Source of the DNA: an uncultured Candidatus Saccharibacteria bacterium
GTDB taxonomy: Bacteria > Patescibacteriota > Saccharimonadia > Saccharimonadales > JBBQAJ01
DNA length: 64,000 nt
Reading direction: 5' to 3'
Assembly: GCA_964593805.1 (NCBI GenBank)
Contig: CAZQHP010000001.1
Span: 709,283 to 773,282 of the forward strand
Part shown: positions 6,390 through 63,353 of the stretch, in pieces
How the letters are laid out: every line of letters starts with the position of its first letter
How positions within the stretch are numbered: the stretch's first letter is position 1
The notes under the pieces: generated by a model
The model's database searches: none
The model's input: the letters and a program-made list of their open reading frames with translations, nothing else
Told to the model about the DNA's origin: nothing
Translations under genes and position numbers: made by a program

Positions 6390-6409
6390 ATGCAACTATA
6401 GTACCTTGT

Positions 6410-7159
6410 TCAGCCTGCCTTGGCGACAACATATGTTCCGGTTCTACCAGCTTCAACCGCTTCAATAGGACAGTCTGCCTGGGCAATATAGGCGTCTATA
6501 CCTTCATCTGCAACCTCAAACGCCGCCCTAAGCTTGGAACGCATACCGCCTTTGCCTCTTGAGCCGCTGTCGTTTACGACCGCTAAAGCTCGTGCTTGAG
6601 CCACTTCACTATATGGTATTTCGCCGATAATACGGCCTTCATACATCAAACCCTCTACGTCATTTGTCATAAAGAAAACGGCTTGAGCCCGCATCAGGAT
6701 GCCGATATGCGCGGCTAAACCATCGTTTTCTCCACCCCAACGGCGTTTTTCAAGTTCTACGTGACTTAGCTTGTCGTTAGTATTTACTATGGGCACAATG
6801 CCGGCCGCAATATCATTTTTCAGAGCCTGCTTTAGCGTACTTCCTTCTTCAGGGTCTTCAATTTCATGATCGGTTACCGGCACTTGGCTAGCCCTTATGC
6901 CAAATTCCCCAAGTGCTTTCTTCCAACCCATGACAATATTGGCACTTCCAAGACCAGCCAGAATTTGTTCGTCTTCAATTTCTGGCGCTTCAGCCCTTCC
7001 TGCCATAACAGAGCCAGAGCTAACAATAATTAATCCGCTTGCATGCCTAACTAGCCGCCGCGCATGGCCATTGAGCTTCTCCTGATTAACGCCAGGTGCA
7101 TCCGCTACAGTCTCAGATCCGCATTTTACAACTTTTATTCCACTCATTATTGTCTCCAA
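6410..7159 (-). CDS. Amino-acid kinase family protein, glutamate 5-kinase (ProB)-like, no PUA domain
   Basis: 249 aa. VVKCGSETV, IVSSGSVMAGR, IPIVNTNDKL..GENDGLAA and GKGGMRSKLRAA resemble the ProB kinase-domain blocks (VKLGTS, VTSGAIAAGR, VINENDAV..GDNDNLSA, GTGGMSTKLQAA). Confidence 0.6.
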   Translation of the reverse strand: METIMSGIKVVKCGSETVADAPGVNQEKLNGHARRLVRHASGLIIVSSGSVMAGRAEAPEIEDEQILAGLGSANIVMGWKKALGEFGIRASQVPVTDHEIEDPEEGSTLKQALKNDIAAGIVPIVNTNDKLSHVELEKRRWGGENDGLAAHIGILMRAQAVFFMTNDVEGLMYEGRIIGEIPYSEVAQARALAVVNDSGSRGKGGMRSKLRAAFEVADEGIDAYIAQADCPIEAVEAGRTGTYVVAKAG

Positions 7160-7160
7160 T

Positions 7161-7184
7161 CAAAAACCCCTCTTCCTCGAGGGG
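7161..7184 (-). terminator. Rho-independent terminator downstream of the CPBP protease gene
   Basis: Minus-strand CCCCTC-gaggaa-GAGGGG hairpin followed by UUUUU. Confidence 0.6.
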
Positions 7185-7294
7185 CGTGTTAGTTTAGTCA
7201 AATGTTTACAAGCAACAAACTACGCCCGAGTGGGCGGAGTGGGCACGTTCCAGTAAACTTTCTGAGCTAAACTCATAGACATAACTATACCACA

Positions 7295-8056
7295 TTATTT
7301 GAGATATTGTACTATGTTGAATAAAACTATGAATGCTAGGCCGTTTTTGATCATATGTAGCCCAATTGAAGGCCACAAACTGCCGGTTTTTTCGCGTAGA
7401 TAACAGAGTACCAGCGACAATATGAAAGTATCCACGGCTGCAACCCATAGCAAGCCGTCGCTAGCCTCACCCAAATGAGCCGCCGCGAACAATCCGCTGG
7501 TTATGATAGCTGCTGATACAAACGGCAGCTTGGTCCTCAGCCCGCCAAACAAAAAACCGCGGGCCACAATTTCTTCAACTATCGGCGGCAGGATTACCAA
7601 ACTGGCAAAAACCGGAATAAGTTCTATGCCCCGCGTGGAGGTACTAAAACCAAGTTCTTGCTTTTGTTCAAGATCCAAACCAGGAACGAGCGCTTTCGCG
7701 ATTAAAATTCCCAAAATATACAGCACAAAATAAGCCGCGAACCCGCTGAGCGCATAGGCTGCGTACTTTGCCCGCGGTTTGTTAAAACCAATGTTTTTAA
7801 AGCCAAGGTTACGAAATTTGAGAAAAAAGTGGAGTAAATAAAGCGTCGCGGCTTCAATCAATATAACAAAAGCGAATGTAGCCCAAACGTTTGTTTGCAG
7901 CCAGTCGGTTGTTTGCGCCGCGCTCCAATGCTGTATGAGCGGTACGATAGAGATCAAAATGCCCGCAACCAGTTGTGCGGCAAAATAAATCGCCACCGTG
8001 ATAAAAACAGTCGCGGACGGACTGTAGAGCTTTGGCTTAATTACTTCTTCTTCCAC
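7295..8056 (-). CDS. CPBP (CAAX) family intramembrane glutamic endopeptidase
   Basis: 253-aa polytopic membrane ORF with an EEIVARGFLFGGL (EExxxR) motif and a later FAAAHL motif. Confidence 0.75.
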   Translation of the reverse strand: MEEEVIKPKLYSPSATVFITVAIYFAAQLVAGILISIVPLIQHWSAAQTTDWLQTNVWATFAFVILIEAATLYLLHFFLKFRNLGFKNIGFNKPRAKYAAYALSGFAAYFVLYILGILIAKALVPGLDLEQKQELGFSTSTRGIELIPVFASLVILPPIVEEIVARGFLFGGLRTKLPFVSAAIITSGLFAAAHLGEASDGLLWVAAVDTFILSLVLCYLREKTGSLWPSIGLHMIKNGLAFIVLFNIVQYLK

Positions 8057-21157: not shown

Positions 21158-21751
21158 TTATAGCTGGAATGAGGCGGCAATTTCACCAAAAGTGCTATTT
21201 AGTTTATCAAAGTCTGATTCTTTGGCTTGCAAAGCCAAATAGTAGGCTGTGTTTTCATCGCGAAGGAAAATATACAGCGCTTGTCGGGCAAGACTGCCGT
21301 CTTTTCCCTGATATGTGAAATCAATTTCTGCCGCTTGCTTGCCGCTATGCTCAAATGTACGCTCAGACAACTTCTTGTAGCCCGGATAACGGGTTGGGAA
21401 GGCTTTGAAGACATTATCCAGCAGCAACTGTCTGGTGGTGGTTTTAGACAGTTGAGAAGCTATCCGTAGGCCGTCTTCGTACCGAAGGGTTATGCTATAC
21501 GGCGGCTCGGCATCACCGCTGGCGCGGAACAAAAATTTATCTTTTACGTCCTGTGGCGTCAGGTCGAGTACGCTTGCATCGACTGGATAGTTTAGTTTTA
21601 CTCCTTGGCTGGTATTACTAAACTCTTTGAGCGCAACCGTAGTGTTTTGGGCGGCTGAATCTGGCTTTTGGTTCTGATAGATAAGCGTGGCTACGCCTAC
21701 GCTGGCGGCCAGCACCAGCAAGCCCGCGCCAACCAGTAAAGTACGTTTCAT
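21158..21751 (-). CDS. Hypothetical membrane-anchored/secreted protein, translationally coupled to the giant surface protein
   Basis: 197 aa with an N-terminal hydrophobic anchor (LLVGAGLLVLAASVGVATLIY). Its start codon shares a base with the upstream stop (TAATG). Confidence 0.55.
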   Translation of the reverse strand: MKRTLLVGAGLLVLAASVGVATLIYQNQKPDSAAQNTTVALKEFSNTSQGVKLNYPVDASVLDLTPQDVKDKFLFRASGDAEPPYSITLRYEDGLRIASQLSKTTTRQLLLDNVFKAFPTRYPGYKKLSERTFEHSGKQAAEIDFTYQGKDGSLARQALYIFLRDENTAYYLALQAKESDFDKLNSTFGEIAASFQL

Positions 21752-24700
21752 TAGTTATTCGACCTTGCCAGTTCAACCCAGCGATCGGTACTGTAGAGCA
21801 TTGTCAGGGAATCATACTGGCCGCTGGCATAGGCGCCGGCCAGTTCACTTACCGTAGCGGTGTCGGCAAAGTTGACAGCGTTAGCAGAGACATTGATTAT
21901 AACCACCGTGTTGCCGTCCTTCACGCTGGCGGCTTCGCTCATGGTAATGTCACAGCCGTTGGCGTCATTACAGGTAATTGTAACGTACGAAGAGGTCGGT
22001 TCCAGCGTCAACGTAGCGGTAGCGGCCGTACCTTCGTCTGCTATGGTTCGAGCGTCCACGCCAAGGCCCAAGCGATCTTCTATAAACAGGCTGGCGCCTG
22101 AACCAGCTAGCTCTACCCTGCCGTCAGTCGCTGCGTCATAGGCCAGGGTGGCGTTTTGCGCCAGACCCAGTTTTAGACCATTATTGTCTCCGAGGTACAG
22201 GTTGTTAAATTCTGCCGATGTGGAACCTAGGTCAATCGTGCCGGCCGCGTTTGGCAAGATATTGCCGCTGGTTGTGATCCCCACCACCGCGGCAATGGCG
22301 CCTGAGCTATTGACTTGGAACAAGTCGCCGCTGCCCACAGTAAAGAGTGCGGCCGGGGTAGTGTCACCAATACCAACGTTGCCAGCCGACAGTACTACTA
22401 GTTTGGAACTTAAACCAGAGGCTGATTTGGTAGATAGGTGCAGATCACTGTAGTTATTAGTATGGTCTATGATTTTAGTACTGATAGCCGCGGCGGCATT
22501 GTTGGTAGCGTCGTCGCCAAAGTATAGTTCTACCCAGTTATTAACGGTCTGGTCCGTGTTCACCAGCCCCAGTGCTCCGGCCACGTTTTGATACTGCGAA
22601 GTTGAAGAACTTGATACTGCCGAAACTATTTTTGAAAGTCCCAAACTAGCTGTACCAATACCGACGTTGCCGCCGCTAGTTTGCAAAAACAGATTGCCGT
22701 ACGAACCAGCCGTACCGGCTCCTGCGCCTGGAGCTCCGCCTTGCAAAGTTATACTGCCGCCGTTGCCGTTAGTTGAACCAGATGGAGCATCCCCGCCAGC
22801 GCCCGCGGTGAGGTTAAGCACCGCGCCCGTGCCACCCGTTTGACCAGTCGTACCGCTAGTATCACCGCCCTTGCCGCCAGTTACCTGCAGTACTTGAGTG
22901 GCATTCGTGCCGCTTCCAGCTACACTGGCGGGCTGCGTGCCTATTAAATGTAATAGTGCGGTTGGGCTAGTAGTACCAATACCTATAGTGCCGTCTTGTC
23001 TAATAGATACCCGGGTTACAAGTCCGTTGAGCGAGGAACCAGACGACGTACTTGCAGGAGCGGTTTGGAGATTGATACTCCCTCCGTTAGCCGTGCCAGT
23101 TCCTTGCCCACCATTTATAGATGTATTGCCTCCAGTTTGGTTTGCTCCACTGCCATCACCACCCTGAAGTGTGACCGGACCACCGGCCGTACCAAGAAAA
23201 ATTTGGCCAGAGCCACCTTTTACCGTAACGGCACCACCTTGGTTGTTAGCACCATTGCCTCCGGTGATTGTAATTGCACCACCAGGATTAAACTGCAAGC
23301 CCGTGGCAGATGCATTGCCACCAGTTATCGCTATAGCTCCACCGGCCGCGTCGAGGCCATTGGCTCCAATTATACTCAGCTGCGCACCAGCAGTTGTAGC
23401 AGAAGTGCTATTTGCCAATTTTATGGTTCTAGCGGCTTCTTTTGTCAGATATATATCGCCTGTCACCTCCAAAGCAGCACCTGGAGCTGATGTACCTATT
23501 CCCACTCTGTTAAGTGCGGCATCAATGTATAGGGTATTAGTATCAAAACTACTCGTACCCGTTCCGGTAACGGTTAAGTTGCCGGCTATTGAAGACGCGC
23601 CCGTTCCCTGAACTGTTAAATTACCTGTCAGAGTTGCATTGCCAGATGTATCTATAGTTAATTTGGTTATACCAGCAGTCTCAAGCTCTAGGCTTCTTGA
23701 ATCATTAGACCCTATCGTTACTGTTGCGCCAAATGTGTTGCCATTTTGGAAGATTGCAGCACCTGCACCGGTTGTTTTACAGTAAACTAGTTGATTAGTG
23801 GTGTTATTTTGACATAAGTATATTGATGCATTTGACCCCGCTAATGTGCTAGGCAATACAATACCGCCGTTGCCAGCCTGTAGCGTTATAGAACTATCTC
23901 CGTTAGGATTACCAATCAACAGCGTAGCTTTTCCAGTTCCAGCTGCCAAACCAGCGCCTATTAGTATAGTTTGAGTATTGCTGTCGGCTATATTACCACT
24001 ACCAATGTTTATAGTATTGCTTATTACCGATTGCCCCAGAGTTATTGTGCCTACTTGACTTGTACCACCGATGGCTATGCCACCAGAAGTATGAGTCTGC
24101 AGCCGTATAGCCTCGCTCCCAGCCGTGTTAGAGGTACCTCCTTGAATCAAAGTAGTGTGATTAGCCGCCCCGATTGAACCAATCGTAACACCGACTGTCC
24201 CGGTTATACCTCCTCCTGTACCAATGGAAATAGTATTACTAGCGGCCGCCCCAGGCACACCTGTCCCAATATTTATAGTCTTGCCACCTGCCACAGTAGT
24301 ATTGCCTGTGCCAATATTGACCGTATCTACCACAGCAGAGTTGCCCCCAGCTATTGTAGTAGTCCTGGCGGCGGCTGGGGCAATGTTGCCTAGGTTGATA
24401 GTCGACACGCGAGTGTTGTTACCTAGGTTTATAGTACTAGCACCGGCCGTGCCAACCCCTGACAGGATATTTACGGTTGTGGCGGCTCCTGTGGTGCCGT
24501 TGCCAATGTTTATGGTTTGGGCACCGGTTGTGGCGTTCGCGCTGCCAATGTTGATGCTATGAGCGGCAGTTGACTGCCCGACTGTTATGGTGCCCGTACC
24601 TGTCGCGTGACCTATCGTAATCCCGCTCGATGATACTGATGTACCGATATTTATAGCGCCATTAGCCCCGCCACCTCCGGTAGTGCCAGCCTGGAGACTA

Positions 24701-27333
24701 ACAGATCCGCCGTTTCCGATAGTGGCATTTCCTCCAGTCAAAGTAACCGACCCGGCCGTTCCATTCGTGGCACCTCCTCCCGTCAATGTGACCGATCCTG
24801 CGGCGCCGCTGGTCGAGCCGCCCGAGCCGGCTGTAATTGATATAGCCCCCCCAGTACCATCAGTCGCACCGCCGCCAGCAAGCAGTGTAATATCTCCACC
24901 TGACGCACAACCGCCAAAACAAAATGCATTATCTGCTTGAATCAAAATGTCAGTGCCTACGCCCCCTGTAGTTGTTATGCTTGCGACTTGATCAAGAGCG
25001 GTACCAACAAATACCAATGACCTGGTGCTTAATGTTGATGATCCTCCATTGACTCCAGCCATACCTGTGACAGTACTGCTAGTAAACAACGCACCTGCGC
25101 TACTTATGGTTAGAACAGACGTCCCACCGTTTAGCCCTTGGAGTAAATATCCACCAAGCTCATTTTGCAGTATTAGTGTAGGTTGGCCTTCATTTGATGA
25201 GGCGTATAGGGTGCCGTTTGAGGCCACGCCGTTGTATTGCGTATTGACGGGGGCGCTTAGTGTAGATACGTAAACTTGCGGGTCGGTACCATACACAGTT
25301 TGAGCGCCCCATGCAGCCACTGTGGTACCGTTGTTCGGTAGAATAATTGTCGGTTTAACAGCTGTAAGCGCTCCTGATATATTCTGGGTTACAGACAGTC
25401 TCTGCCATGTGGTCGTGGCGGTAAATGAAGCCGCCGTGCCAGTGGCAGGTGTACCACCTGTACTATCAATCCGTAAACTAACTGGGGCAGTACCGCTGTT
25501 AGTTTTCAGCCACACGCTAAATGTATAGTTTCCAGTTATAGATGCCAAGAACGACTGATACAGACCGGCATTGGCCGCATTAGATACCAGTTTATCAGCT
25601 GTTTGTGTGCCGTTCGGTGCGGGATTGGAGGCTGGATCATCCGCTGTTACAGACATATTAGCTGGGGATATAATAGTTGGAAGCCAAAAATCTGTATTTG
25701 AAAACACCTCGCTGCTAAAAAGCCGATTACTGAATTTACCTATACCTCCGCTGGCGTTGTTGATATATCCAATGGATTCTTGATTGCCGCCAGCACTAAT
25801 ATTTAATAAATTCGCTCCGGCTGAATTCCTGAGCTGAAACAAATCGGCTGTTTGCGACGAGGCTCCTTGTATAATTGCCCCTATACTTGCCGATGAAGCA
25901 CTTTGGATATTAAAATTGGCGTTTGACTGAGTTGTTGTACCATTCTGAATATACCCAGTGCCACCGGTAGATGGTGCGTAGCCGCTACATACTGAGCCCG
26001 TGCTACACAAAGTACCCGTTTCATTTGGCAGAGTTAATGTGTTCGTAGAAGGGCTGGTGGGACCTATAAGCGTCAAGGTATTGGCAGACCCGCTGCCTTT
26101 GAACAGTATTGAACCTGTGTTTGTATTGGCGGTGCCAAGCGTTAGTGAATTAGCGCCTTGGATTGCTAATGTTCCTGTGAAATTAGCCGCCGAAGAGATA
26201 GTCTGGGAGTTGTAGGTTCCGGCGGTAACATTGCCGGTACCGCCAACTGCCAACCTATCTGTGCCTCCGCTCTGAAGCTGTAATAGGTTGCCGCCGCCCG
26301 TATCGTTTAGAAATATGCTAGCATCGGCCGTATTATCAGTTTGTGCGGAACCTGGTGCTAACAGTACAGCTTGGCCGCCGCCAGCCGCACAGGTTACGCC
26401 TGTGGTACAAATCGTTTGAGCCGCGCCCCCGCTAGTTGGGAAAATAAATGACCGGCCGCCGGCAGTGAATGTTAGCACGTCACCTCCGGCATCAATGGAT
26501 AGGTTGTTGCCGGAGCCTGTTTGCTTCAAACTGTTGCCTAGAATAACACCAGTCGCAGGTAGGGAAAGGTTTCCAAATTGCACGCTTGCGGTAGTATTGA
26601 TATTTTGTGGCGCTGAAAGGGTTAGGACTCCACCGGCGCTGTTAACATTTATTTGGTTCGCCGTACCTTGAATAGTTACGTCGTCACTAAATCCGTTGAC
26701 TGTTGTAGATGTTGGGTTAACTATTTGCCCTAGCTTCGTCTGCAACAACTCGCTAGTTACAAAATTACAGTTATTACTGTCCAGGCAGATTGTACCGCTG
26801 GCGTTTGGCAGCGTAAAAGTTTGATTTGCATTAGCGGCTTGAGTGCGAAAAAGGGTGGTAAAATTGCCGTCGGAGAACTTTAAATCTCCCCGCGTGACTA
26901 CATCGCCGTTCACTAGCAGGGATCTGTTGCTACCTTGTAGCTCTGATGGCAGCGTAGTTATTGCGGCATCTTTGAGCGTTACGTCTTGAATGCTGACCGA
27001 GGTCTGTTTGGCCTTCGTTGAGTTTTGTTCTTTTCTTAGCACAAACAAAATACTAACCCCTGTCAGCAGTACCACGGCCACGGTCACGCCAATTGACACG
27101 GCCATGGCTTTATGGCGCGAAAACGCTAGCAAAGAAGTAGCCGGCCTAGACGGGGCCTTGGGCGCATAAGCTATATCACTCTGCTCATGAATTTCCAGAT
27201 CTTCGGTCGCGTAATTATTTTCGGTCGAACTATAACCAACCACCGGCGCTGATGCGCCACTAGAAAGCCCATTGCCTGAAATAGGCAAATTAGGCTGGGT
27301 AGGGTCTTCAGCTTTAAGCTGATGGTCGTCCAT
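21751..27333 (-). CDS. Giant (1860 aa) membrane-anchored surface protein, beta-helix/tail-fibre-like putative adhesin
   Basis: ~75-aa cytoplasmic N-terminus and a single TM (AMAVSIGVTVAVVLLTGVSILFVL). The rest is G/T/A/S/N-rich with degenerate GG-x-hydrophobic repeats. Four copies of a [VI]GIG[TD]xxP/L..AL motif and a C-terminal DLGSTSAEFNNLYLG segment recall phage tail-fibre proteins. Confidence 0.6.
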   Translation of the reverse strand: MDDHQLKAEDPTQPNLPISGNGLSSGASAPVVGYSSTENNYATEDLEIHEQSDIAYAPKAPSRPATSLLAFSRHKAMAVSIGVTVAVVLLTGVSILFVLRKEQNSTKAKQTSVSIQDVTLKDAAITTLPSELQGSNRSLLVNGDVVTRGDLKFSDGNFTTLFRTQAANANQTFTLPNASGTICLDSNNCNFVTSELLQTKLGQIVNPTSTTVNGFSDDVTIQGTANQINVNSAGGVLTLSAPQNINTTASVQFGNLSLPATGVILGNSLKQTGSGNNLSIDAGGDVLTFTAGGRSFIFPTSGGAAQTICTTGVTCAAGGGQAVLLAPGSAQTDNTADASIFLNDTGGGNLLQLQSGGTDRLAVGGTGNVTAGTYNSQTISSAANFTGTLAIQGANSLTLGTANTNTGSILFKGSGSANTLTLIGPTSPSTNTLTLPNETGTLCSTGSVCSGYAPSTGGTGYIQNGTTTQSNANFNIQSASSASIGAIIQGASSQTADLFQLRNSAGANLLNISAGGNQESIGYINNASGGIGKFSNRLFSSEVFSNTDFWLPTIISPANMSVTADDPASNPAPNGTQTADKLVSNAANAGLYQSFLASITGNYTFSVWLKTNSGTAPVSLRIDSTGGTPATGTAASFTATTTWQRLSVTQNISGALTAVKPTIILPNNGTTVAAWGAQTVYGTDPQVYVSTLSAPVNTQYNGVASNGTLYASSNEGQPTLILQNELGGYLLQGLNGGTSVLTISSAGALFTSSTVTGMAGVNGGSSTLSTRSLVFVGTALDQVASITTTGGVGTDILIQADNAFCFGGCASGGDITLLAGGGATDGTGGAISITAGSGGSTSGAAGSVTLTGGGATNGTAGSVTLTGGNATIGNGGSVSLQAGTTGGGGANGAINIGTSVSSSGITIGHATGTGTITVGQSTAAHSINIGSANATTGAQTINIGNGTTGAATTVNILSGVGTAGASTINLGNNTRVSTINLGNIAPAAARTTTIAGGNSAVVDTVNIGTGNTTVAGGKTINIGTGVPGAAASNTISIGTGGGITGTVGVTIGSIGAANHTTLIQGGTSNTAGSEAIRLQTHTSGGIAIGGTSQVGTITLGQSVISNTINIGSGNIADSNTQTILIGAGLAAGTGKATLLIGNPNGDSSITLQAGNGGIVLPSTLAGSNASIYLCQNNTTNQLVYCKTTGAGAAIFQNGNTFGATVTIGSNDSRSLELETAGITKLTIDTSGNATLTGNLTVQGTGASSIAGNLTVTGTGTSSFDTNTLYIDAALNRVGIGTSAPGAALEVTGDIYLTKEAARTIKLANSTSATTAGAQLSIIGANGLDAAGGAIAITGGNASATGLQFNPGGAITITGGNGANNQGGAVTVKGGSGQIFLGTAGGPVTLQGGDGSGANQTGGNTSINGGQGTGTANGGSINLQTAPASTSSGSSLNGLVTRVSIRQDGTIGIGTTSPTALLHLIGTQPASVAGSGTNATQVLQVTGGKGGDTSGTTGQTGGTGAVLNLTAGAGGDAPSGSTNGNGGSITLQGGAPGAGAGTAGSYGNLFLQTSGGNVGIGTASLGLSKIVSAVSSSSTSQYQNVAGALGLVNTDQTVNNWVELYFGDDATNNAAAAISTKIIDHTNNYSDLHLSTKSASGLSSKLVVLSAGNVGIGDTTPAALFTVGSGDLFQVNSSGAIAAVVGITTSGNILPNAAGTIDLGSTSAEFNNLYLGDNNGLKLGLAQNATLAYDAATDGRVELAGSGASLFIEDRLGLGVDARTIADEGTAATATLTLEPTSSYVTITCNDANGCDITMSEAASVKDGNTVVIINVSANAVNFADTATVSELAGAYASGQYDSLTMLYSTDRWVELARSNN

Positions 27334-53804: not shown

Positions 53805-56922
<3,118 letters not shown>

Positions 56923-57250
56923 ACGATATTGTGCATCGACTAGTTATTGGTAATACCAATACCTGTGCCATGTCGAATGACATGGTGCCGTTTGCCTTAT
57001 CGAAGGTCATATACGTTCCATTACGTACACAACCTATCTCAAAATTTGAATCTAATTGTTAAGTTACAAAACCCAAGAACATCCCACAAATACTGAATGA
57101 TTTACCCTGAGAGCTTGAGTTTACGCTGAAAGCCTGCAGGCGATTCCTTACAACTTCTTGCCTAAACTCAAGCAGTTGCAATATCTTATCACTAATAACA
57201 GGGGCGGTCAAGCATATTCTGATGTCAAACTTGCTACGTTTTATAGACTG

Positions 57251-58252
57251 TTAGCGCGGAGGTATTCCTTGCTTTTGCAATCGCTCGTCAGCTTCATTGC
57301 TGAGCCTAGTAATGATCTGTCCTGTCAGTAGATAGTTGAGCGGGTCCTGGTCTTCAGGAGGCTTACCATACTCAAACATTATATGCATGCAACGATTTAT
57401 GGCTTCGGCTGTATGACCATGGCTACGGTGGTTAAGCGGATTAAGTGCCGCTTCTCCTTGGACAGCAGCTTGTCTGTTGAGTAGCGCGGTCACTTGATTA
57501 CCCATCTCAACTATGACGGCATGCAGAGGCACGTCCCTTTTTGGTATTTTCGCCAGAAGCGCTTCCAACACAGATGCATTTCTCCAACCAGACTCTGAAG
57601 CTTCTTTGATAATGTTTGAAAAATTGTCGAATACGCGTCGTCTCAAACTAATTGGGTCCGAATACGGTAAACCAGGCAAAACCTCTTCTACAGGCTCTGT
57701 TTGAAGCTGTTCCACAACATCTGAAAGTATAGATGGGTCCTTTCCTGCTATTTTTGGTCCCATCACATAAGAATTAAATGCCAGTCGACTACTTTCGTCT
57801 CCCGCAGTCTTGGCAAATACCTCTTGCCAGAAACTTTCAGAACTTTGCCCCAGATCATCAACTGCAATGTGTTTATTAGCATCGCCTGCCTGCACCCTCC
57901 AGCTCAGTCGAGACATAACCCTGAGTGACATCAGCCACTGTAAATAACCCGAGGGATATTTCGCAATCCCCCATTTATCAACAGTAATTTGCTCACGCAA
58001 ACCTCTCCCATAGTCAACCAGAGCCTGTTTAGCAGCTTCTAGTTCTTCTACAGATCGCTCTTCTATCAATGCTCTGAAATTTTGGTCAACTGTTGTTGTG
58101 AAAAGTTCCCGTGGCTGATCACGTCTCCCAACACCCCAGGTTACATTATTTTCTGTGACTTGGTGCGCATACTCAACAGCCGACGTGCCTTCTGCCAGTT
58201 CTATAGGCGCCGTAGGGTTTGGTCCGGTTTGTAGTGTTTCTTTTGTAGGCAC
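57251..58252 (-). CDS. Hypothetical cytoplasmic protein (333 aa), downstream partner of the S8 protease
   Basis: Intact ORF with no signal peptide and no recognisable motif. It lies between the protease gene and 23S rRNA. Confidence 0.5.
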   Translation of the reverse strand: MPTKETLQTGPNPTAPIELAEGTSAVEYAHQVTENNVTWGVGRRDQPRELFTTTVDQNFRALIEERSVEELEAAKQALVDYGRGLREQITVDKWGIAKYPSGYLQWLMSLRVMSRLSWRVQAGDANKHIAVDDLGQSSESFWQEVFAKTAGDESSRLAFNSYVMGPKIAGKDPSILSDVVEQLQTEPVEEVLPGLPYSDPISLRRRVFDNFSNIIKEASESGWRNASVLEALLAKIPKRDVPLHAVIVEMGNQVTALLNRQAAVQGEAALNPLNHRSHGHTAEAINRCMHIMFEYGKPPEDQDPLNYLLTGQIITRLSNEADERLQKQGIPPR

Positions 58253-58304
58253 AGTATATGTATTATACTACAATCATCATTAAATAGCAAGCTCCCGGTA
58301 ATGT

Positions 58305-60047
58305 TTATTTTGTAGTCAGTGTAACTGAATTAGATGCAGCTGACTTGTTGTTACTGGCGTCAACAGCCTGAACATAGTAGGTATATCTAGTTCTGCGAGC
58401 AACGGATGTATCGGTGAAAGTCAGGTTAGTTGTCTTGGCGTAAAGCACGCCGTTTCGGTAAATCCAGTATTCTTTTACAGCAACGTTATCTTTGCTAGCT
58501 GTCCAGGTAAGTTTTGGCTTGCCGTTCTGCAGCTTGCCAGTCAGCACAGACGCAGTTGGAGCGGTAGTATCAGCAGGAAGTATTAGTGTGCCTAGTGCAC
58601 GATTTAGGTTTGGTAACGGACCTATATTTCCGGTCAATGTTCCAGCACTGGTGTTTTGCAGAGTTCCAGTCTGAATTAGTGTGCTACGTATCTGTGCAGG
58701 AGTTAGTACTTTGCCTGGGTTGAGTGTTTCGTAAGCAGAGCTTAGAGAAGCGATGGCTGAGGCCACAATTGGAGCAGCCGAACTTGTGCCATTAAAGTTT
58801 GAAGTATATGCACCATTTGGTGTAGTACTTGCTTCTAATGCGCCATAACCAGTTGTTGTTACACATTCTCCATGGCCCTGTAGTTCAACACGTGAACCGT
58901 AATTGCTAAAGTACAAGCGCGAATGAAGCGGCGCGCTACAAGCCGAACCCGCGCCGGCAATAACGGCACCCGAATTTACTTTGCCACTCGGGAAAGTCGT
59001 ACCCCACACCGTTGTGTCATCTAGATTATGACCGCTGTTGGCAGCCGCTTCTACAACATTTATACCGCTGTTTGTCAGCGCTTTAATAGCGTCATATATG
59101 GCTGGCTCCCACTCAACTGGCGCAAATCCGCCCACACTGGCGGGCGCCCAAGTTTGCTGCTCAATTAGAATTACATCACCAGGTACTGCTTTTGTAGCGG
59201 CAACCTGCAATGCGCCGACTATATCCCAACCGCGCTCTGAATTATAGGTATTAACTCTACTGAGTTTAACGCCAGTAGTAGCTCCAGTTACTCCGTAAGT
59301 ATTATCTGTTGCTACCATTTCGCCTAGAACGGCAGTACCGTGGTTTGTGTCATTAAACGGATCAACTGGCGTACCGTTTTTTACCATGGTATACACTGCT
59401 TTGGATAAGTCTTCGTGAGCGGCGTTCCAGCTGTATTCCAGATCAATTATACGCACAGCCGAGCCGGTGCCGCCTGGGAATGTTTTGGCAAAAGTTGCGC
59501 CAATTCCTTCTGGGCTAGGGTTTAGGTACTTCTGCAGGCTGGTGTAGTTGTTTGCCGTCGGTGCGGGCGCGGGCTTTGACTCTGGGTACACGGTTTCCAC
59601 GCTGTCCAACAAAGCAATCTGACCCACCAGAGCTTGAATATTATCTTTGGGAGTAACTTTGACTACAAAGTAGTTGTCTAGCTCGCTTGCCAGTTTAGTG
59701 CTGGCTTCTGTAGCTAGTTCGCTACCTGGACGAACTAGTTTTTCCAGCTTTTGCTTGCCCGCGTCTGCCAGTACTTTATTTATACTGTTAGCTTTGTTGC
59801 TAGTTTTGGTACTTTTAGCTTTGAAGTTGCTAGTCTGATCCAGCTCCATCTCTGCTGAATCTTTAAGCTTAAAAATAAGACTGTCGTTACGGTATTTCTG
59901 AGCGTTTGAATAGTCGTTGTTTGGGTTTGAGCCAGCGTCTACGACGCTGCCCAGACCAAACAGACTAGGTACAACTAAAAGCGCTGCCAGAAACAGAGAC
60001 AAAACAGATACAGTAACCTTGCCAAAACGATTTGCACGTAACTTCAA
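58305..60047 (-). CDS. Secreted subtilisin-like serine protease (S8 family) with C-terminal fibronectin-III-like domain
   Basis: N-terminal signal/anchor (VSVLSLFLAALLVVPSLFGL). Catalytic Asp (VRIIDLEYSW), His (NHGTAVLGEM) and Ser (NGTSSAAPIVAS) in D-H-S order. The C-terminal LTWTASKDNVAVKEYWIYRNG...YYVQAVDASNN segment is FN3-like. Confidence 0.8.
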   Translation of the reverse strand: MKLRANRFGKVTVSVLSLFLAALLVVPSLFGLGSVVDAGSNPNNDYSNAQKYRNDSLIFKLKDSAEMELDQTSNFKAKSTKTSNKANSINKVLADAGKQKLEKLVRPGSELATEASTKLASELDNYFVVKVTPKDNIQALVGQIALLDSVETVYPESKPAPAPTANNYTSLQKYLNPSPEGIGATFAKTFPGGTGSAVRIIDLEYSWNAAHEDLSKAVYTMVKNGTPVDPFNDTNHGTAVLGEMVATDNTYGVTGATTGVKLSRVNTYNSERGWDIVGALQVAATKAVPGDVILIEQQTWAPASVGGFAPVEWEPAIYDAIKALTNSGINVVEAAANSGHNLDDTTVWGTTFPSGKVNSGAVIAGAGSACSAPLHSRLYFSNYGSRVELQGHGECVTTTGYGALEASTTPNGAYTSNFNGTSSAAPIVASAIASLSSAYETLNPGKVLTPAQIRSTLIQTGTLQNTSAGTLTGNIGPLPNLNRALGTLILPADTTAPTASVLTGKLQNGKPKLTWTASKDNVAVKEYWIYRNGVLYAKTTNLTFTDTSVARRTRYTYYVQAVDASNNKSAASNSVTLTTK

Positions 60048-60073
60048 AACAAATACCTTACCTTAATGCAATC

Positions 60074-60102
60074 ATTATATCACCAATATCAATAATTGTC
60101 AA
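60074..60102 (-). promoter_or_regulatory. Perfect consensus sigma-70-type promoter for the S8 protease gene
   Basis: Minus strand TTGACA (60097-60102), a 17-nt spacer, then TATAAT (60074-60079), about 27 nt upstream of the ATG. Confidence 0.6.
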
Positions 60103-60135
60103 CCGCTTGTGCTTGAATTCTGTTGTTGTCACTTA

Positions 60136-60161
60136 AAATAAAAGATCCACCTTTCGGTGGA
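60136..60161 (-). terminator. Rho-independent terminator after the tRNA cluster / tRNA-Ala fragment
   Basis: Minus-strand UCCACC-gaaa-GGUGGA followed by UCUUUUAUUUU. Confidence 0.65.
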
Positions 60162-60168
60162 CACTTTA

Positions 60169-60192
60169 TTTGGTGGAGCAACGGGGACTCGA
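60169..60192 (-). repeat. 24-bp duplicate of the tRNA-Ala 3' end (att-like direct repeat)
   Basis: TTTGGTGGAGCAACGGGGACTCGA is identical at 60169-60192 and 60345-60368. The copy lacks the rest of the tRNA. Confidence 0.8.
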
Positions 60193-60346
60193 CCTACCTT
60201 CGGCAGGCCCGAAACTTCGCGACTGGCAACAAGTTGCCATCGGAAGATTTCCTTGCGAAGTGCCACTGGCACTTCTCACCCGGACCCTGTGCGGGGTTCT
60301 CGATTTTAACCAAACAAAAAGCCCAGCTCAAGCTGGACCCTTTGTT

Positions 60347-60423
60347 TGGTGGAGCAACGGGGACTCGAACCCCGGACCCCCTGCTTGCAAAGCAGGTGCT
60401 CTAGCCAACTGAGCTATTGCCCC
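60347..60423 (-). tRNA. tRNA-Ala (UGC), CCA encoded
   Basis: Reverse complement GGGGCAAUAGCUCAGUUGGCUAGAGCACCUGCUUUGCAAGCAGGGGGUCCGGGGUUCGAGUCCCCGUUGCUCCACCA. Cloverleaf with a G3-U70 pair and UGC anticodon. Confidence 0.9.
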
Positions 60424-60536
60424 ATGTATGAGACAAACCTTCGGTTTTTCTCATCGGTCAGTCGGCAAAAGCCGCCCCGCAAGCGGGCAAGCTGACCTGC
60501 TCTTTTCCCTGGCTTCAGGAAAACAACTTTGTAAAT

Positions 60537-60613
60537 TGGTGGGCGATGAGGGACTCGAACCTCCGACCTCGTCATTATCAGTGACGCGCTCTAACCAGCT
60601 GAGCTAATCGCCC
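60537..60613 (-). tRNA. tRNA-Ile (GAU), CCA encoded
   Basis: Reverse complement GGGCGAUUAGCUCAGCUGGUUAGAGCGCGUCACUGAUAAUGACGAGGUCGGAGGUUCGAGUCCCUCAUCGCCCACCA, with anticodon loop CUGAUAA. Confidence 0.9.
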
Positions 60614-60668
60614 TCGCAAAAGACCAGCGTATTGTACCGGAAACTCCCCTGTTAAACAACTGTAGTTG

Positions 60669-60878
60669 CTAAACGGGTCTTTCCGATTCTGGAGGTTTTG
60701 GTTCTGCAAAGCGAAACCGAAGACCTTGTTTATCTACATACAAGATGGCATGCACGCCTTCTTCGAATCCGATTAATCTTTGCAAAGGCCTCCGAAACAA
60801 GCGTGGAATTTCGTGACCATAAATTACGGCTGGTGACACCCGCTCTTTTTTGCCAGAAGTAGGCTCAACTTCTCCCAT
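60669..60878 (-). CDS. Hypothetical small protein (69 aa)
   Basis: The ORF has a TATAAT (60888-60893, minus strand) about 9 nt upstream of its ATG. No family recognised; it may be non-coding. Confidence 0.3.
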   Translation of the reverse strand: MGEVEPTSGKKERVSPAVIYGHEIPRLFRRPLQRLIGFEEGVHAILYVDKQGLRFRFAEPKPPESERPV

Positions 60879-60899
60879 AGTACGATTATTATAACAAAC

Positions 60900-60954
60900 G
60901 AGGGTTAGCCCTCATCCCCCACCATGAAACACCTTCCAGAGGTGTTTTTATTTT
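60900..60954 (+). repeat. Repeat A: degenerate tRNA-Ile 3' half (T-arm-like hairpin + ATCCCCCACCA) plus terminator hairpin
   Basis: GAGGG-ttag-CCCTC ATCCCCC ACCA resembles GGAGG-uucgagu-CCCUC AUCGCCC ACCA of tRNA-Ile but is on the opposite strand. It is followed by AAACACCT-tccag-AGGTGTTT and a T-run. Positions 60918-60954 repeat at 61548-61584 with one mismatch. Confidence 0.75.
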
Positions 60955-61003
60955 TGTACAAACTTCCTACTATTAGCAACTCAGCTTGTGTTATCATTCA
61001 GAA

Positions 61004-61279
61004 ATGAGCGATACCCAGAATTCCGAGAGGTTACAAAAATCGAATTTTAATACAACCGCACAGTTTATGCTACCTTTCTTTACGCTTAGCTCAATACTAC
61101 TAATATCTTTCAAGCAGCCGCAGTGGGGATTGATAACGAACCTGATTGCCCAGATATTCTGGCTTTATTCCGGTTGGAAAGCCTGGAAGGAAGCAAATCA
61201 GATTGGGATTTTTATAAATGCGATCGCTTTCACGGTCATAGTTATCTTTGGCATTATCAATTATTGGTTTATTAAATAA
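61004..61279 (+). CDS. Hypothetical small membrane protein (91 aa, 3 TM)
   Basis: ATG at 61004. Trp-rich TM helices (IAQIFWLYSGWKAWKEANQIGIFINAIAFTVIVIFGIINYW). Confidence 0.45.
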   Translation: MSDTQNSERLQKSNFNTTAQFMLPFFTLSSILLISFKQPQWGLITNLIAQIFWLYSGWKAWKEANQIGIFINAIAFTVIVIFGIINYWFIK

Positions 61280-61284
61280 GTATA

Positions 61285-61294
61285 CCGCCCACCA
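61285..61294 (+). repeat. Repeat B: CCGCCCACCA core
   Basis: A 10-mer shared with repeat C, of which 9 nt are identical to the tRNA-Ile 3' end. It sits in the 20-nt gap between two small ORFs. Confidence 0.6.
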
Positions 61295-61299
61295 ATTTT

Positions 61300-61542
61300 A
61301 TGAAAGATACCGAACTCAGTAAACTAGTCAAAGAAGCTGAATCAATTGTTGGCGGCAATTGGGATTCGCATGCAGACACTGCACGCGGCCATGCTAAGAT
61401 TCAGTCTTTGCTAGTTGCAACAAATGTAGAACTTATAAAAACCATCCGTGAACTTGACCACAAGAACAGCAGACTCCAGAAACTGGTCTTTCTACTATCT
61501 GTCGTGGCCACCTTTGCAGCGATCGTAGCTCTCATAAAGTAA
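61300..61542 (+). CDS. Hypothetical tail-anchored coiled-coil protein (80 aa)
   Basis: ORF with a C-terminal TM (LVFLLSVVATFAAIVALI). Confidence 0.45.
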   Translation: MKDTELSKLVKEAESIVGGNWDSHADTARGHAKIQSLLVATNVELIKTIRELDHKNSRLQKLVFLLSVVATFAAIVALIK

Positions 61543-61544
61543 AA

Positions 61545-61584
61545 CCGCCCACCATGAAACACCTTACAGAGGTGTTTTTATTTT
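61545..61584 (+). repeat. Repeat C: CCGCCCACCA core plus terminator hairpin (copy of repeat A)
   Basis: CCCACCATGAAACACCTTaCAGAGGTGTTTTTATTTT, exactly 630 bp downstream of repeat A. Confidence 0.75.
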
Positions 61585-61629
61585 GCTTACATTTGTCTGA
61601 GGTTGGGTTGGGTCAGATATAATAGACCT

Positions 61630-61899
61630 ATGAAGAAGTTTTGGAAGCCACTCATTATCTTTGTTGCTCTTAGTTTTATGATTCTAGTGGCTGAGATATT
61701 GGTATTTGAAACTTCTTGCCCTGGACGAGGGTTTTTCAAAGAAAGTAGCGATGGCAGATATTTGTGCGGTACTACCAGCAATGCCGAGGCTGAGATTGGC
61801 CACTTTATCTTGTCGGCAATGCTGCTAGCTCTACTTGCTACTTTCGCTACGCATCTTTTAGTACGAATCATCGAAGGCCTCAGCTCAAAAACTAAATAA
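61630..61899 (+). CDS. Hypothetical small membrane protein (89 aa, 2 TM)
   Basis: ATG at 61630 (MKKFWKPLIIFVALSFMILVA...). Confidence 0.45.
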   Translation: MKKFWKPLIIFVALSFMILVAEILVFETSCPGRGFFKESSDGRYLCGTTSNAEAEIGHFILSAMLLALLATFATHLLVRIIEGLSSKTK

Positions 61900-61937
61900 T
61901 TGCTCGGCTTGCGTCGTTTTAGGGGTAAAATGTTCTT

Positions 61938-62303
61938 GTGAGTTTAGCTTTATTTGTAGTTTTTGTGGTGTTAGTTGTTGTAGTTTTTTGGTGGCTTGTT
62001 GGGTTTACCCTTGGCCTAATTATCGCATTTATACCCAAACCAATTAAAGTTGACCGCTTTATAAACAAAGCAACTGCAAAGCGGTACTTACTCTTTAGCA
62101 CCGTTGTGCTTGTCGCAAGCTACCTTATTGAGCTACCGCTAAAACGCAGCTGTGCGTTTGATGGTTGCATTCCAACCGGTTCTGTTTCTTTTACAAACGC
62201 CGTGTTCGGTCTGCCAGCATATAGTCTCTTTGTCCTCTTTGTAGTTGGAGTTGGCATCTGGACAGCCCGCCTTGTTAGTGTCAAAAGAAAAACCCATATA
62301 TAA
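61938..62303 (+). CDS. Hypothetical membrane protein (121 aa)
   Basis: GTG-start ORF with 3-4 hydrophobic helices. Confidence 0.4.
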   Translation: MSLALFVVFVVLVVVVFWWLVGFTLGLIIAFIPKPIKVDRFINKATAKRYLLFSTVVLVASYLIELPLKRSCAFDGCIPTGSVSFTNAVFGLPAYSLFVLFVVGVGIWTARLVSVKRKTHI

Positions 62304-62374
62304 ACTTCACATCCCGCTCGTGCTTGCTAAGCCAAGATTTCATCGTATTATTAATGATATAGGGAGTTGCTAAT

Positions 62375-62812
62375 ATGACAGAAGTTATTGGCTTACCGAC
62401 AGTAGATAGCGTTATGGACACCATACCAACCGGCCGAAGAGCTTATATAAGCGCTACAACTGATTTGGGAAATGGCGAAGTTATAAAAGACGCTTGGGGA
62501 CATTCCATTGGAGTAATAGTTAACGCGCTTGGGCTTGTTTCGGCAGTGCGTACACTCGCTGAAGCCAGTTTGAAAGACGAGTTAGTGCCGCCTCTACCCG
62601 ATGATCTAAAAACTATATTGGTTACTTTCAAGGATGTAATTGACAGGCACAAAAATGATACTTTTGCAGCCGAAGAGCTGCATACAAAGTACCGTGTTCC
62701 GGCAGAATTGGCGGTTCGCGCCGCACTTGACCATGGTAGTAATGCCCACCAGCGTGCGATTTCTCGGGATCAGACTGTGTTCCCTGTTTCGCCAGATGCA
62801 ATTCAGTTTTAG
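62375..62812 (+). CDS. Hypothetical soluble protein (145 aa)
   Basis: ORF preceded by GGGAG. No family recognised. Confidence 0.45.
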   Translation: MTEVIGLPTVDSVMDTIPTGRRAYISATTDLGNGEVIKDAWGHSIGVIVNALGLVSAVRTLAEASLKDELVPPLPDDLKTILVTFKDVIDRHKNDTFAAEELHTKYRVPAELAVRAALDHGSNAHQRAISRDQTVFPVSPDAIQF

Positions 62813-62824
62813 CCAGTTACAATA

Positions 62825-62835
62825 ATCGCCCACCA
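62825..62835 (+). repeat. Repeat D: ATCGCCCACCA core (11/11 identical to the tRNA-Ile 3' end)
   Basis: Lies directly after the 145-aa ORF and is followed by a weak hairpin and a T-rich tract. Confidence 0.6.
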
Positions 62836-62873
62836 TTAACACCTTTTAGTGTGATTTTGTTTATAATAAGGCT

Positions 62874-63110
62874 ATGCAAAAGAAGCATACGAACTTTCTC
62901 ATCACACTGACTTTCCTTATACCCAGTGTATTTCTAATATGGTTTGTGCTATTACGCCCACAGATCAAGAGTGCTGAAAGCAAGTGTTATTCTCCAAATG
63001 GTAAGCAAAATATAGAAATACAGCATGGTCTTCTAAGTTTAGAATGTAGGGTATTGGATGATCCTAGCGGGAATGAACAGCTTACAAAAACCTATAATTA
63101 CTTTTGGTAA
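62874..63110 (+). CDS. Hypothetical small secreted/anchored protein (78 aa)
   Basis: N-terminal hydrophobic helix (FLITLTFLIPSVFLIWFVLL) and two Cys. Confidence 0.4.
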   Translation: MQKKHTNFLITLTFLIPSVFLIWFVLLRPQIKSAESKCYSPNGKQNIEIQHGLLSLECRVLDDPSGNEQLTKTYNYFW

Positions 63111-63115
63111 CTAAA

Positions 63116-63151
63116 AGCGCCCTTCTCGCAAATAGGGCGCTTTCGTTTTTT
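63116..63151 (+). terminator. Strong terminator where the small-gene array and 16S rRNA converge
   Basis: AGCGCCCT-tctcgcaaat-AGGGCGCT followed by TTCGTTTTTT. Confidence 0.7.
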
Positions 63152-63353
63152 GAGGCTTCTCGGTCTTTTGTGTCCGCTAAAAACTTTTATAGTGCAAATC
63201 AAACGTCAGGTCGTGTTACAGAACTGAAATCTTGTCCTTCGCTCTCGCAAGCAATTGCGAAGGATATGTGAGTTGTCAGTACTGATATTACAACTCACCA
63301 AGATCGACCTAGCTCGCAAAGGATTGCTCCGCATGCTGCTAGTTTTCTCCCTA

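Follow-up and report, generated by a model that had tools for sequence, protein, structure and literature searches.

Tyrosine-integrase elements that insert at transfer RNA (tRNA) genes classically leave their mark as a direct repeat of the tRNA 3′ end on either side of the insertion, and such a repeat lies beside the tRNA-Ala gene in the stretch of DNA we analysed: 64,000 nucleotides (nt) from an uncultured Candidatus Saccharibacteria bacterium, hereafter the window. The original prediction for this locus was that a 24-nt repeat of the tRNA-Ala 3′ end encloses a highly structured spacer of 152 nt, and that the spacer is either the scar of a lost integrative element or a small structured RNA with a tRNA-like CCA end. 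The repeat (TTTGGTGGAGCAACGGGGACTCGA) is indeed exact, at 60169–60192 and 60345–60368. With a confidence only a little better than even, we read the spacer as a copy of a so far undescribed structured-RNA module that is conserved in Candidatus Saccharibacteria and rides piggyback on tRNA genes, an interpretation built from sequence comparison.

The closest known systems each share only part of the element's features. Integrative elements of tRNA 3′ ends (tyrosine-integrase islands and prophages, and the cis-mobilisable elements that retain only att sites) have direct repeats starting in the T-loop, a regenerated tRNA and an empty site, as our element does. Ours, however, is only 176 base pairs (bp) long and has no integrase, cargo or decaying arms; it holds a conserved, covarying multi-hairpin domain together with an inverted relic of the same tRNA, and it was not found in viral contigs by pattern scans or in phage and plasmid collections by blastn. 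Among tRNA-derived RNAs, such as transfer-messenger RNA (tmRNA, including its two-piece form), the bacterial Y RNA YrlA and mascRNA, a T-stem, an acceptor 3′ strand and a CCA frame another RNA, and like them the element probably exploits tRNA transcription and end processing. Unlike them, it has no possible acceptor stem, no tag reading frame and no Rfam match at E values up to 10, and it copies the adjacent tRNA, be it Ala, Val or Lys, rather than a fixed alanine-type domain.

Archaeal bulge-helix-bulge tRNA introns (some of them in the T-loop) and bacterial group I introns of anticodon loops are likewise structured inserts at a fixed position, with related inserts in different tRNA species. 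Here, by contrast, the interrupted copy lacks a tRNA 5′ half, so that splicing could yield no tRNA, and an intact tRNA stands upstream. The insert also falls short of a group I intron in size and shows no feature of that class, and the host is a bacterium, for which we know of no splicing endonuclease. REPIN/RAYT systems, PATEs (palindrome-associated transposable elements) derived from IS200/IS605, Correia elements and RPE are small, hairpin-rich and noncoding, sit by terminators and vary in presence, all of which our element shares; REPINs have been reported to persist for long at orthologous sites, and the element is similarly long-lived. It departs from these families in being a four-way junction with invariant junction nucleotides, not a hairpin of terminal inverted repeats, and in being strictly tRNA-linked, with few copies per locus and no associated transposase seen. 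Tandem inversion duplications at quasi-palindromes, finally, resemble it in the sense-antisense-sense order of the tRNA 3′ part and in junctions that fall at hairpins, but leave a shared foreign insert and its recurrence at four tRNAs unexplained.

Architecture and fold of the module

The 152-nt spacer, too short for a gene, consists of a terminator, a relic of 11 nt in antisense and a partial tRNA-Ala whose T-loop contains a structured domain, all read on the minus strand. As its host gene the module has a complete tRNA-Ala(UGC) with an encoded CCA (60347–60423; found by ARAGORN and scoring 70.9 bits against the Rfam tRNA model). The first copy of the repeat (60345–60368, reading TCGAGTCCCCGTTGCTCCACCAAA, also given as TCGAGUCCCCGUUGCUCCACCAAA) is part of this functional tRNA, running from U55 of the T-loop through the T-stem 3′ strand, the acceptor 3′ strand and ACCA to a final AA. 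Next comes terminator 1 (60309–60346), an A-run, a hairpin (AAACAAAGGGUCCAGC-UUGA-GCUGGGCUUUUUGUUUGG) and a U-run, defined by its inverted repeat, its fold and the comparison of loci; its CCAGC-UUGA-GCUGG hairpin and U-run had been correctly spotted beforehand. The antisense relic, GAACCCCGCAC (60289–60299), is the reverse complement of tRNA-Ala at about nucleotides 47–56 (GUCCGGGGUUC), matching at 10 of 11 positions. It is followed by a sense partial copy of tRNA-Ala, AGGGUCCGGG (60279–60288), made of variable loop and T-stem 5′ strand, which leads into the core. The T-loop of this partial tRNA contains an insert of about 95 nt, three hairpins closed by the T-stem, and the second copy of the repeat (60169–60192) is the remainder of the same partial tRNA: what is left of the T-loop, then the T-stem 3′ strand, the acceptor 3′ strand, ACCA and AA.

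A 22-nt core of the repeat has exactly two matches in the window, with none expected from 100 shuffles. The similarity also reaches beyond the 24 nt, to 57 nt at 81% identity (60136–60192 against 60312–60368), a span that takes in the A-run/hairpin/U-run terminator following each copy. Behind the second copy stands terminator 2 (60130–60168; AAAUAAAGUGUCCACC-GAAA-GGUGGAUCUUUUAUUUU), the ancestral terminator of tRNA-Ala. The repeat is a duplicated tRNA 3′ segment: one copy preserves an intact tRNA-Ala, the other closes the domain.

Other Saccharibacteria carry the same arrangement. The most conserved 21-mer of the spacer, taken from a comparison with locus L037, retrieved seven metagenome loci, and protein-anchored look-ups added four more. 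We count 12 copies in 11 loci, that of the window and 11 further copies, hosted by tRNA-Ala-UGC (the window, L037 and L042), tRNA-Val-UAC (L040, with two copies, and L043–L046), tRNA-Lys-UUU (L057/L041 and L059) and tRNA-Lys-CUU (L065/L066). The layout is common to all loci. A complete tRNA is followed by an A-run/hairpin/U-run terminator and by a short antisense piece of that tRNA, the reverse complement of its variable-loop/T-arm region; a sense copy of the host's variable loop and T-stem 5′ strand then leads to the insert of about 95 nt, placed at the position of T-loop nucleotide 54; and behind the insert stand UCGAGU (or UCAAGU, at hosts that carry this variant), the host's own T-stem 3′ strand, acceptor 3′ strand and CCA, and lastly a second terminator. 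The tRNA-derived flanks match the local tRNA every time, down to the TCAAGT T-loop variant of L065. At the Val and Lys loci the relic is the reverse complement of tRNA-Val or tRNA-Lys instead, and in every tRNA group the match to the relic's own tRNA scores top. The second copy of L040 joins the whole 5′ part of tRNA-Val directly to the insert. The CCA-bearing tail is truncated or decayed in L037, L046, L059, L065 and partly in L043, with the core intact. The 3′-terminal 22 nt of tRNA-Ala are found almost solely in Saccharibacteria genomes (an exact match occurs in 37 genome loci, chiefly Saccharibacteria with a few Chloroflexi). R1, the covariance model of the core, finds one copy in the window and, among those 37 loci, a match in L037 only. 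In some copies the partial tRNA is interrupted between its T-stem 3′ strand and acceptor 3′ strand by an additional GC-rich hairpin, as at L044 (252–296) and L065 (2860–2900); one such hairpin is CCUGUCCGCC...GGCAGACAGGCGGG. In L065 the element also recurs in degenerate form (20 bits), about 0.9 kb downstream of the first copy.

The conserved core occupies 60179–60290 (128.4 bits with R1), and the consensus that RNAalifold gives for ten copies is a four-way junction of a closing stem and helices P1, P2 and P3. The closing stem (5′ strand 60276–60282; 3′ strand 60182–60187, which is the T-stem 3′ strand) is the T-stem with two further pairs. P1 (60257–60275), GAAGUGCC-AGU-GGCACUUC, has 8 bp and a 3-nt loop. 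It is followed by an invariant GCAAG junction (60252–60256) and by P2 (60211–60251), of about 18 bp and highly variable sequence. P3 (60191–60209; GGCCUGCC-GAA-GGUAGGUC) has two G·U pairs that are invariant in 12 of 12 copies, and the GAG junction behind it (60188–60190) stems from T-loop nucleotides 57–59; the first bases of the second repeat copy belong to P3 and the closing stem. The predicted P1 hairpin and the GGCAA-CUUG-UUGCC hairpin, now the tip of P2, are both supported by covariation. A long-range pairing of CUUCGC with GCGAAG, proposed alongside them, found no support: GCGAAG pairs with CUUC(C) of the P2 5′ strand.

That the spacer is highly structured holds for the single sequence, which folds better than its shuffles (z = −3.25 for 60170–60310 on the minus strand; z = −6.5 for the spacer with both terminators), and the covariance comparison across homologous loci, which the prediction had named among its checks, gave strong compensatory covariation. 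In the model-based alignment of the 12 copies, which by its making leans towards the model, pairing holds in 97.3% of cells, and 22 of the 40 pairs show compensatory changes on both sides; none of 500 shuffles did as well, and slid controls paired at 30–47%. A MAFFT alignment, not fitted to the model, gave nearly the same figures: 97.0% of cells pairing, 20 of 40 pairs compensatory, no shuffle of 500 as good and slid controls at 30–46%. The closing stem covaries with the tRNA type, and junction and loop nucleotides are invariant while the stems covary. Pairing stands at 97% on the sense strand against 90% on the antisense strand. The helices work on the tRNA-sense strand, because G·U cells outnumber A·C cells by 29 to 2. 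The Val-type copies could plausibly form two further pairings, one a hairpin of the relic with the partial T-arm, the other a different closing helix (GGACUCGA/UCGAGUCC); we leave both unproven because they are broken in L046 and exclude, and are excluded by, the supported closure through the T-stem.

None of the described RNA families that we searched for fits the domain. Rfam 15 (4227 models, among them tRNA, tmRNA, permuted tmRNA, SRP (signal recognition particle RNA), 6S, RNase P, ribozymes, and omega and bridge-type RNAs) returned no hit to the spacer when the whole window was searched at gathering score, none to 60169–60344 when 59900–60700 was searched at E values up to 10, and none in five other element-carrying loci. 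ARAGORN found no tmRNA or extra tRNA in the spacer, and full-text literature searches returned no description of such an element. A riboswitch or cis-regulatory leader was rejected: the genes downstream differ between loci (S8 protease, SPFH, kinase, Mrr nuclease and proteins of no known kind), several of them lie on the opposite strand, and the S8 protease of the window has its own consensus promoter, which counts against a leader. Protein coding was rejected too, as the plus-strand open reading frames (ORFs) across the spacer clash with the stem-wise pattern of compensation.

The empty site and movement between tRNA genes

The closest relative we found, L047 (GCA_964597925.1), has an S8 protease 82% identical to that of the window and shares the order gyrB-gyrA-16S-tRNA-Ile-tRNA-Ala-S8 protease. 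It has the empty site. Its tRNA-Ala is followed directly by a homologue of terminator 2, the protease promoter and the protease, with no terminator 1 and no match to R1, and its positions 5873–7763 map to 60192–58285 of the window; the second repeat copy, which runs on into the ancestral downstream sequence, aligns with the tRNA 3′ end of this site. The window thereby has 176 bp extra at 60193–60368, any 176-bp frame within 60169–60368 being equivalent because of the 24-nt repeat. The unit is an insertion/deletion polymorphism at the tRNA-Ala 3′ end, gained or lost in the window genome. The S8 protease (58305–60047, minus strand), suggested earlier to be surviving cargo, is not cargo, because the protease, its promoter (consensus TTGACA/TATAAT, 60074–60102, minus strand) and terminator 2 are all present at the empty site.

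Comparison of empty and occupied sites, then, upholds one half of the predicted att-like scar, an insertion or deletion at a tRNA 3′ end, and not the other: what lies there is no pair of decaying attP arms but a conserved module that looks functional, and Pfam found no integrase. On the plain version of that idea, attP arms fused after the loss of a tRNA-integrating element and now stand there with no function and an incidental structure. A direct repeat of the tRNA 3′ end around an insertion missing in a relative is just what it predicts. Yet the same sequence of about 110 nt recurs in 12 copies with 22 of 40 pairs compensated, this sequence is more conserved than its flanks, no copy has cargo between the repeats, no integrase remnant turned up in the Pfam scans, and an insert inside the T-loop of the second copy would disrupt a recombination site of core type. 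We strongly disfavour a plain scar and give it a very small probability indeed.

Between syntenic pairs of loci, identity falls in steps, from 95–100% in the tRNA through 75–94% in the core and 58–75% in terminator 1 and the relic to 40–55% downstream, while the flanking proteins are only about 60% identical. At these syntenic loci the core is therefore more conserved than its flanks and under purifying selection in place, which argues against an inert scar. The module has also moved between tRNA loci, because neither its core nor its P2 follows the tRNA type: the core of the window (Ala) is 84% identical to that of L040 (Val) and 81% to that of L042 (Ala), and each of the two P2 sequence types is seen beside Ala as well as Val tRNAs.

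Movement of this sort is what a selfish, non-autonomous mobile DNA element would show, and this is the main rival to a structured RNA, if an unlikely one in our estimation. Such an element, comparable to PATEs, miniature inverted-repeat transposable elements (MITEs) or attC sites, would have no RNA function; a recombinase or transposase whose gene lies elsewhere in the genome would recognise its hairpins as folded single-stranded DNA, with the tRNA T-loop or 3′ end as target. The unit present in the window and missing in L047, the same T-loop insertion point in four tRNA species, the core tree incongruent with tRNA type, the two copies in one locus (L040), and a position between terminators with no promoter of its own all fit it. 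Strand-specific G·T wobble is also expected where a top strand is recognised as single-stranded DNA, as in IS200/IS605. But Pfam scans found no transposase, integrase or reverse transcriptase, whether among the neighbours in the window and at eight other loci or among all ORFs of the window of at least 150 amino acids (aa), and the scans of viral, phage and plasmid collections turned up no copies. The element is not one long hairpin of terminal inverted repeats; its invariant junctions and loops with covarying stems are as in functional RNAs; and a core conserved above its own flanks, where neighbouring proteins are about 60% identical, is unexpected of inert copies. A mobile DNA element fits the mobility, then, and not the conservation in place.

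A third account needs no horizontal movement at all. In it, a tandem inversion duplication of the tRNA 3′ half arose by template switching at the terminator and at a second small palindrome, and was later elaborated in place. The sense, antisense and sense tRNA pieces all match the local tRNA, their junctions fall at palindromes (the terminator loop, and CACGC-GGA-GCGUG in L057), and terminators 1 and 2 are nearly identical in L044. What it fails to accommodate is the homologous insert of about 95 nt common to loci at four different tRNAs, because of which at least the insert must have moved, and a close relative without the whole unit. Terminator 1 of the window, moreover, is nearer to the element-side terminators of the Val and Lys loci L046, L040 and L065 than to its own terminator 2, and because of this likeness we regard terminator 1 as part of the inserted unit, travelling with the module. 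We think a purely local origin improbable.

Proposed expression of the module and its tRNA-like end

If the module is an RNA, as we favour, it would owe its transcription to the tRNA promoter and to polymerase reading through terminator 1, as the copies share no promoter of their own: the sole weak promoter-like site in the window (60331–60303, 9 of 12 positions) is unconserved in other copies. The RNA would be freed by tRNA 3′-end processing and stabilised by its compact four-way junction together with the tRNA-like 3′ end, where present, or terminator 2, and may act as a stable non-coding RNA. It could spread between tRNA loci and genomes by recombination in the conserved 3′ part of tRNAs, from the T-loop (TCGAGTCC) to CCA, an event that would rebuild the tRNA and create the direct repeat.

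Several points weigh against this scheme. The module sits between two hairpins resembling intrinsic terminators with no conserved promoter upstream, so that its transcription would depend on the assumed read-through. The tRNA-like 3′ tail is lost in 4–5 of the 12 copies and is therefore not essential to the role of the core. Hairpins conserved on one strand through G·T pairs would also fit an element recognised as single-stranded DNA, and simple recombination within the 3′ part of the tRNA fails to account for the inverted relic. Of the originally predicted small structured RNA with a CCA end, what survives is the structure, a conserved family with covariation and an RNA-like strand bias; the CCA tail is inconstant, and an acceptor stem cannot form within the element, as it contains no complement of UUGCUCC. 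That impossible stem and the loss of the tail in L037, L046, L059 and L065 exclude a tRNA-like molecule standing on its own.

The acceptor stem could form with the upstream gene, which is the basis of a further alternative: a read-through isoform of the tRNA with a conserved domain in its T-loop, possibly aminoacylated for non-ribosomal use. Here the tRNA 5′ part would pair with the distal acceptor 3′ strand, and a giant extra arm would arise from pairing of the relic with the first T-arm and 3′ end plus terminator 1. When the full transcripts of L045, L057 and the window are folded for minimum free energy, the 5′ acceptor strand of the tRNA does find its partner in the distal 3′ strand, and for L045 and L057 the fold also joins the first copy to the relic, but such folds cannot tell two identical 3′ strands apart. 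The distal acceptor strand changes in concert with the tRNA (UUGCUCC in the window against UCGCUCC in L042; AUCACCC in L045 against AGCGCCC in L043), which gene conversion between repeats 176 bp apart can also explain. The relic is specific to the local tRNA, and L040 joins a whole tRNA-Val 5′ part straight to the core. Set against these, the relic is only about 11 nt in the Ala-type copies, that of the window included, L037, L046, L059 and L065 keep an intact core beside a truncated or decayed distal acceptor strand, and co-transcriptional folding and processing would favour the ordinary tRNA. We attach little weight to such an isoform.

Taken to its furthest, the structured-RNA interpretation invites a bolder proposal, which we offer only tentatively and think less probable than its negation: a self-restoring, tRNA-piggybacking mobile RNA gene, which would be a new class of genetic element with a compact RNA domain in the T-loop of a spare tRNA 3′ half, in ultra-small symbiotic bacteria. 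The tRNA would serve it as promoter, processing signal and recombination target, each insertion rebuilding the tRNA and duplicating its 3′ end, and the RNA itself might possibly have catalytic activity or scaffold a ribonucleoprotein.

The surrounding locus and what the module may mean

The window, which belongs to a metagenome contig of 776,748 bp (ENA ERZ27284378, k139_508325), has the gene content of a small chromosome and a split rRNA operon on the minus strand, along which the module lies between 16S rRNA (63355 to the window end) and tRNA-Ile (60537–60613) on one side and 23S rRNA (53805–56923), followed by 5S, on the other. Between the S8 protease and 23S is an ORF of 333 aa (57251–58252, minus strand) with no Pfam match; the interval that holds it, 57247–58284, is a third insertion relative to L047, where the protease and the 23S leader are 34 nt apart. 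The 23S rRNA itself spans 3119 nt against a model of 2925 positions, with about 190 nt of extra sequence, and that of L047 has a further 65 nt at the site equal to 54497/54498 of the window. A stretch of about 2.5 kb (60663–63177) separates the 16S 3′ flank from tRNA-Ile and is missing in L047, whose gap is 42 nt. It carries six small plus-strand ORFs (78–145 aa), antisense to the rRNA operon and with no Pfam match, and two fragments that resemble the tRNA-Ile 3′ end, both inverted and upstream of tRNA-Ile: CCCTCATCCCCCACCA at 60908–60924 (plus strand), followed by a terminator hairpin and T-run at 60926–60955 (plus strand), and CGCCCACCAATTT at 61286–61298 (plus strand). These are inverted tRNA-end relics of the same kind as that of the module, without the conserved core. 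Farther off, on the minus strand, the window encodes a heliorhodopsin (1434–2339), a class I lysyl-tRNA synthetase (2851–4383) and an ORF of 1860 aa with no Pfam domain (21751–27333).

Two other oddities of Saccharibacteria tRNA genes came to light among the loci we compared. In L023 (downstream of tRNA-Ala), L028 and L040 (upstream of 12542), tRNA 5′ fragments made of the acceptor and the start of the D-arm are followed by unrelated sequence and then by the reverse complement of the D-arm, which suggests other insertions or inverted duplications inside tRNA genes of these bacteria. In seven other Saccharibacteria loci (L004, L005, L008, L011, L026, L036 and L039), hairpins of 35–37 nt, GGGG...CUCCACCA, lie just downstream of tRNA-Ala, between it and tRNA-Ile or tRNA-Val. 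All seven have G3·U70, the pairs G1-C72, G2-C71 and G4-C69 do not vary, the inner pairs covary and ACCA comes next. They look like genomically encoded tRNA-Ala minihelices and would be expected to be substrates of alanyl-tRNA synthetase.

Saccharibacteria are ultra-small episymbionts whose genomes, of about 0.8–1.2 Mb, have little spare DNA, and because of this a selected non-coding domain beside several tRNA genes likely matters, either to the cell or to an element that exploits it. To our knowledge, almost no non-coding RNAs have been characterised in the phylum. If the module is expressed, it would be a new, covariation-supported RNA family for the phylum and would show that a tRNA frame can house an RNA in a new way, with the T-loop of a half-tRNA as the point of entry. 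If it is mobile DNA, it would be a new, protein-less element that is specific for the tRNA T-loop and spares its target gene. Either way, the direct repeat of a tRNA 3′ end is here no evidence of a lost island, a point relevant to automated island and prophage callers in genomes of the Candidate Phyla Radiation.

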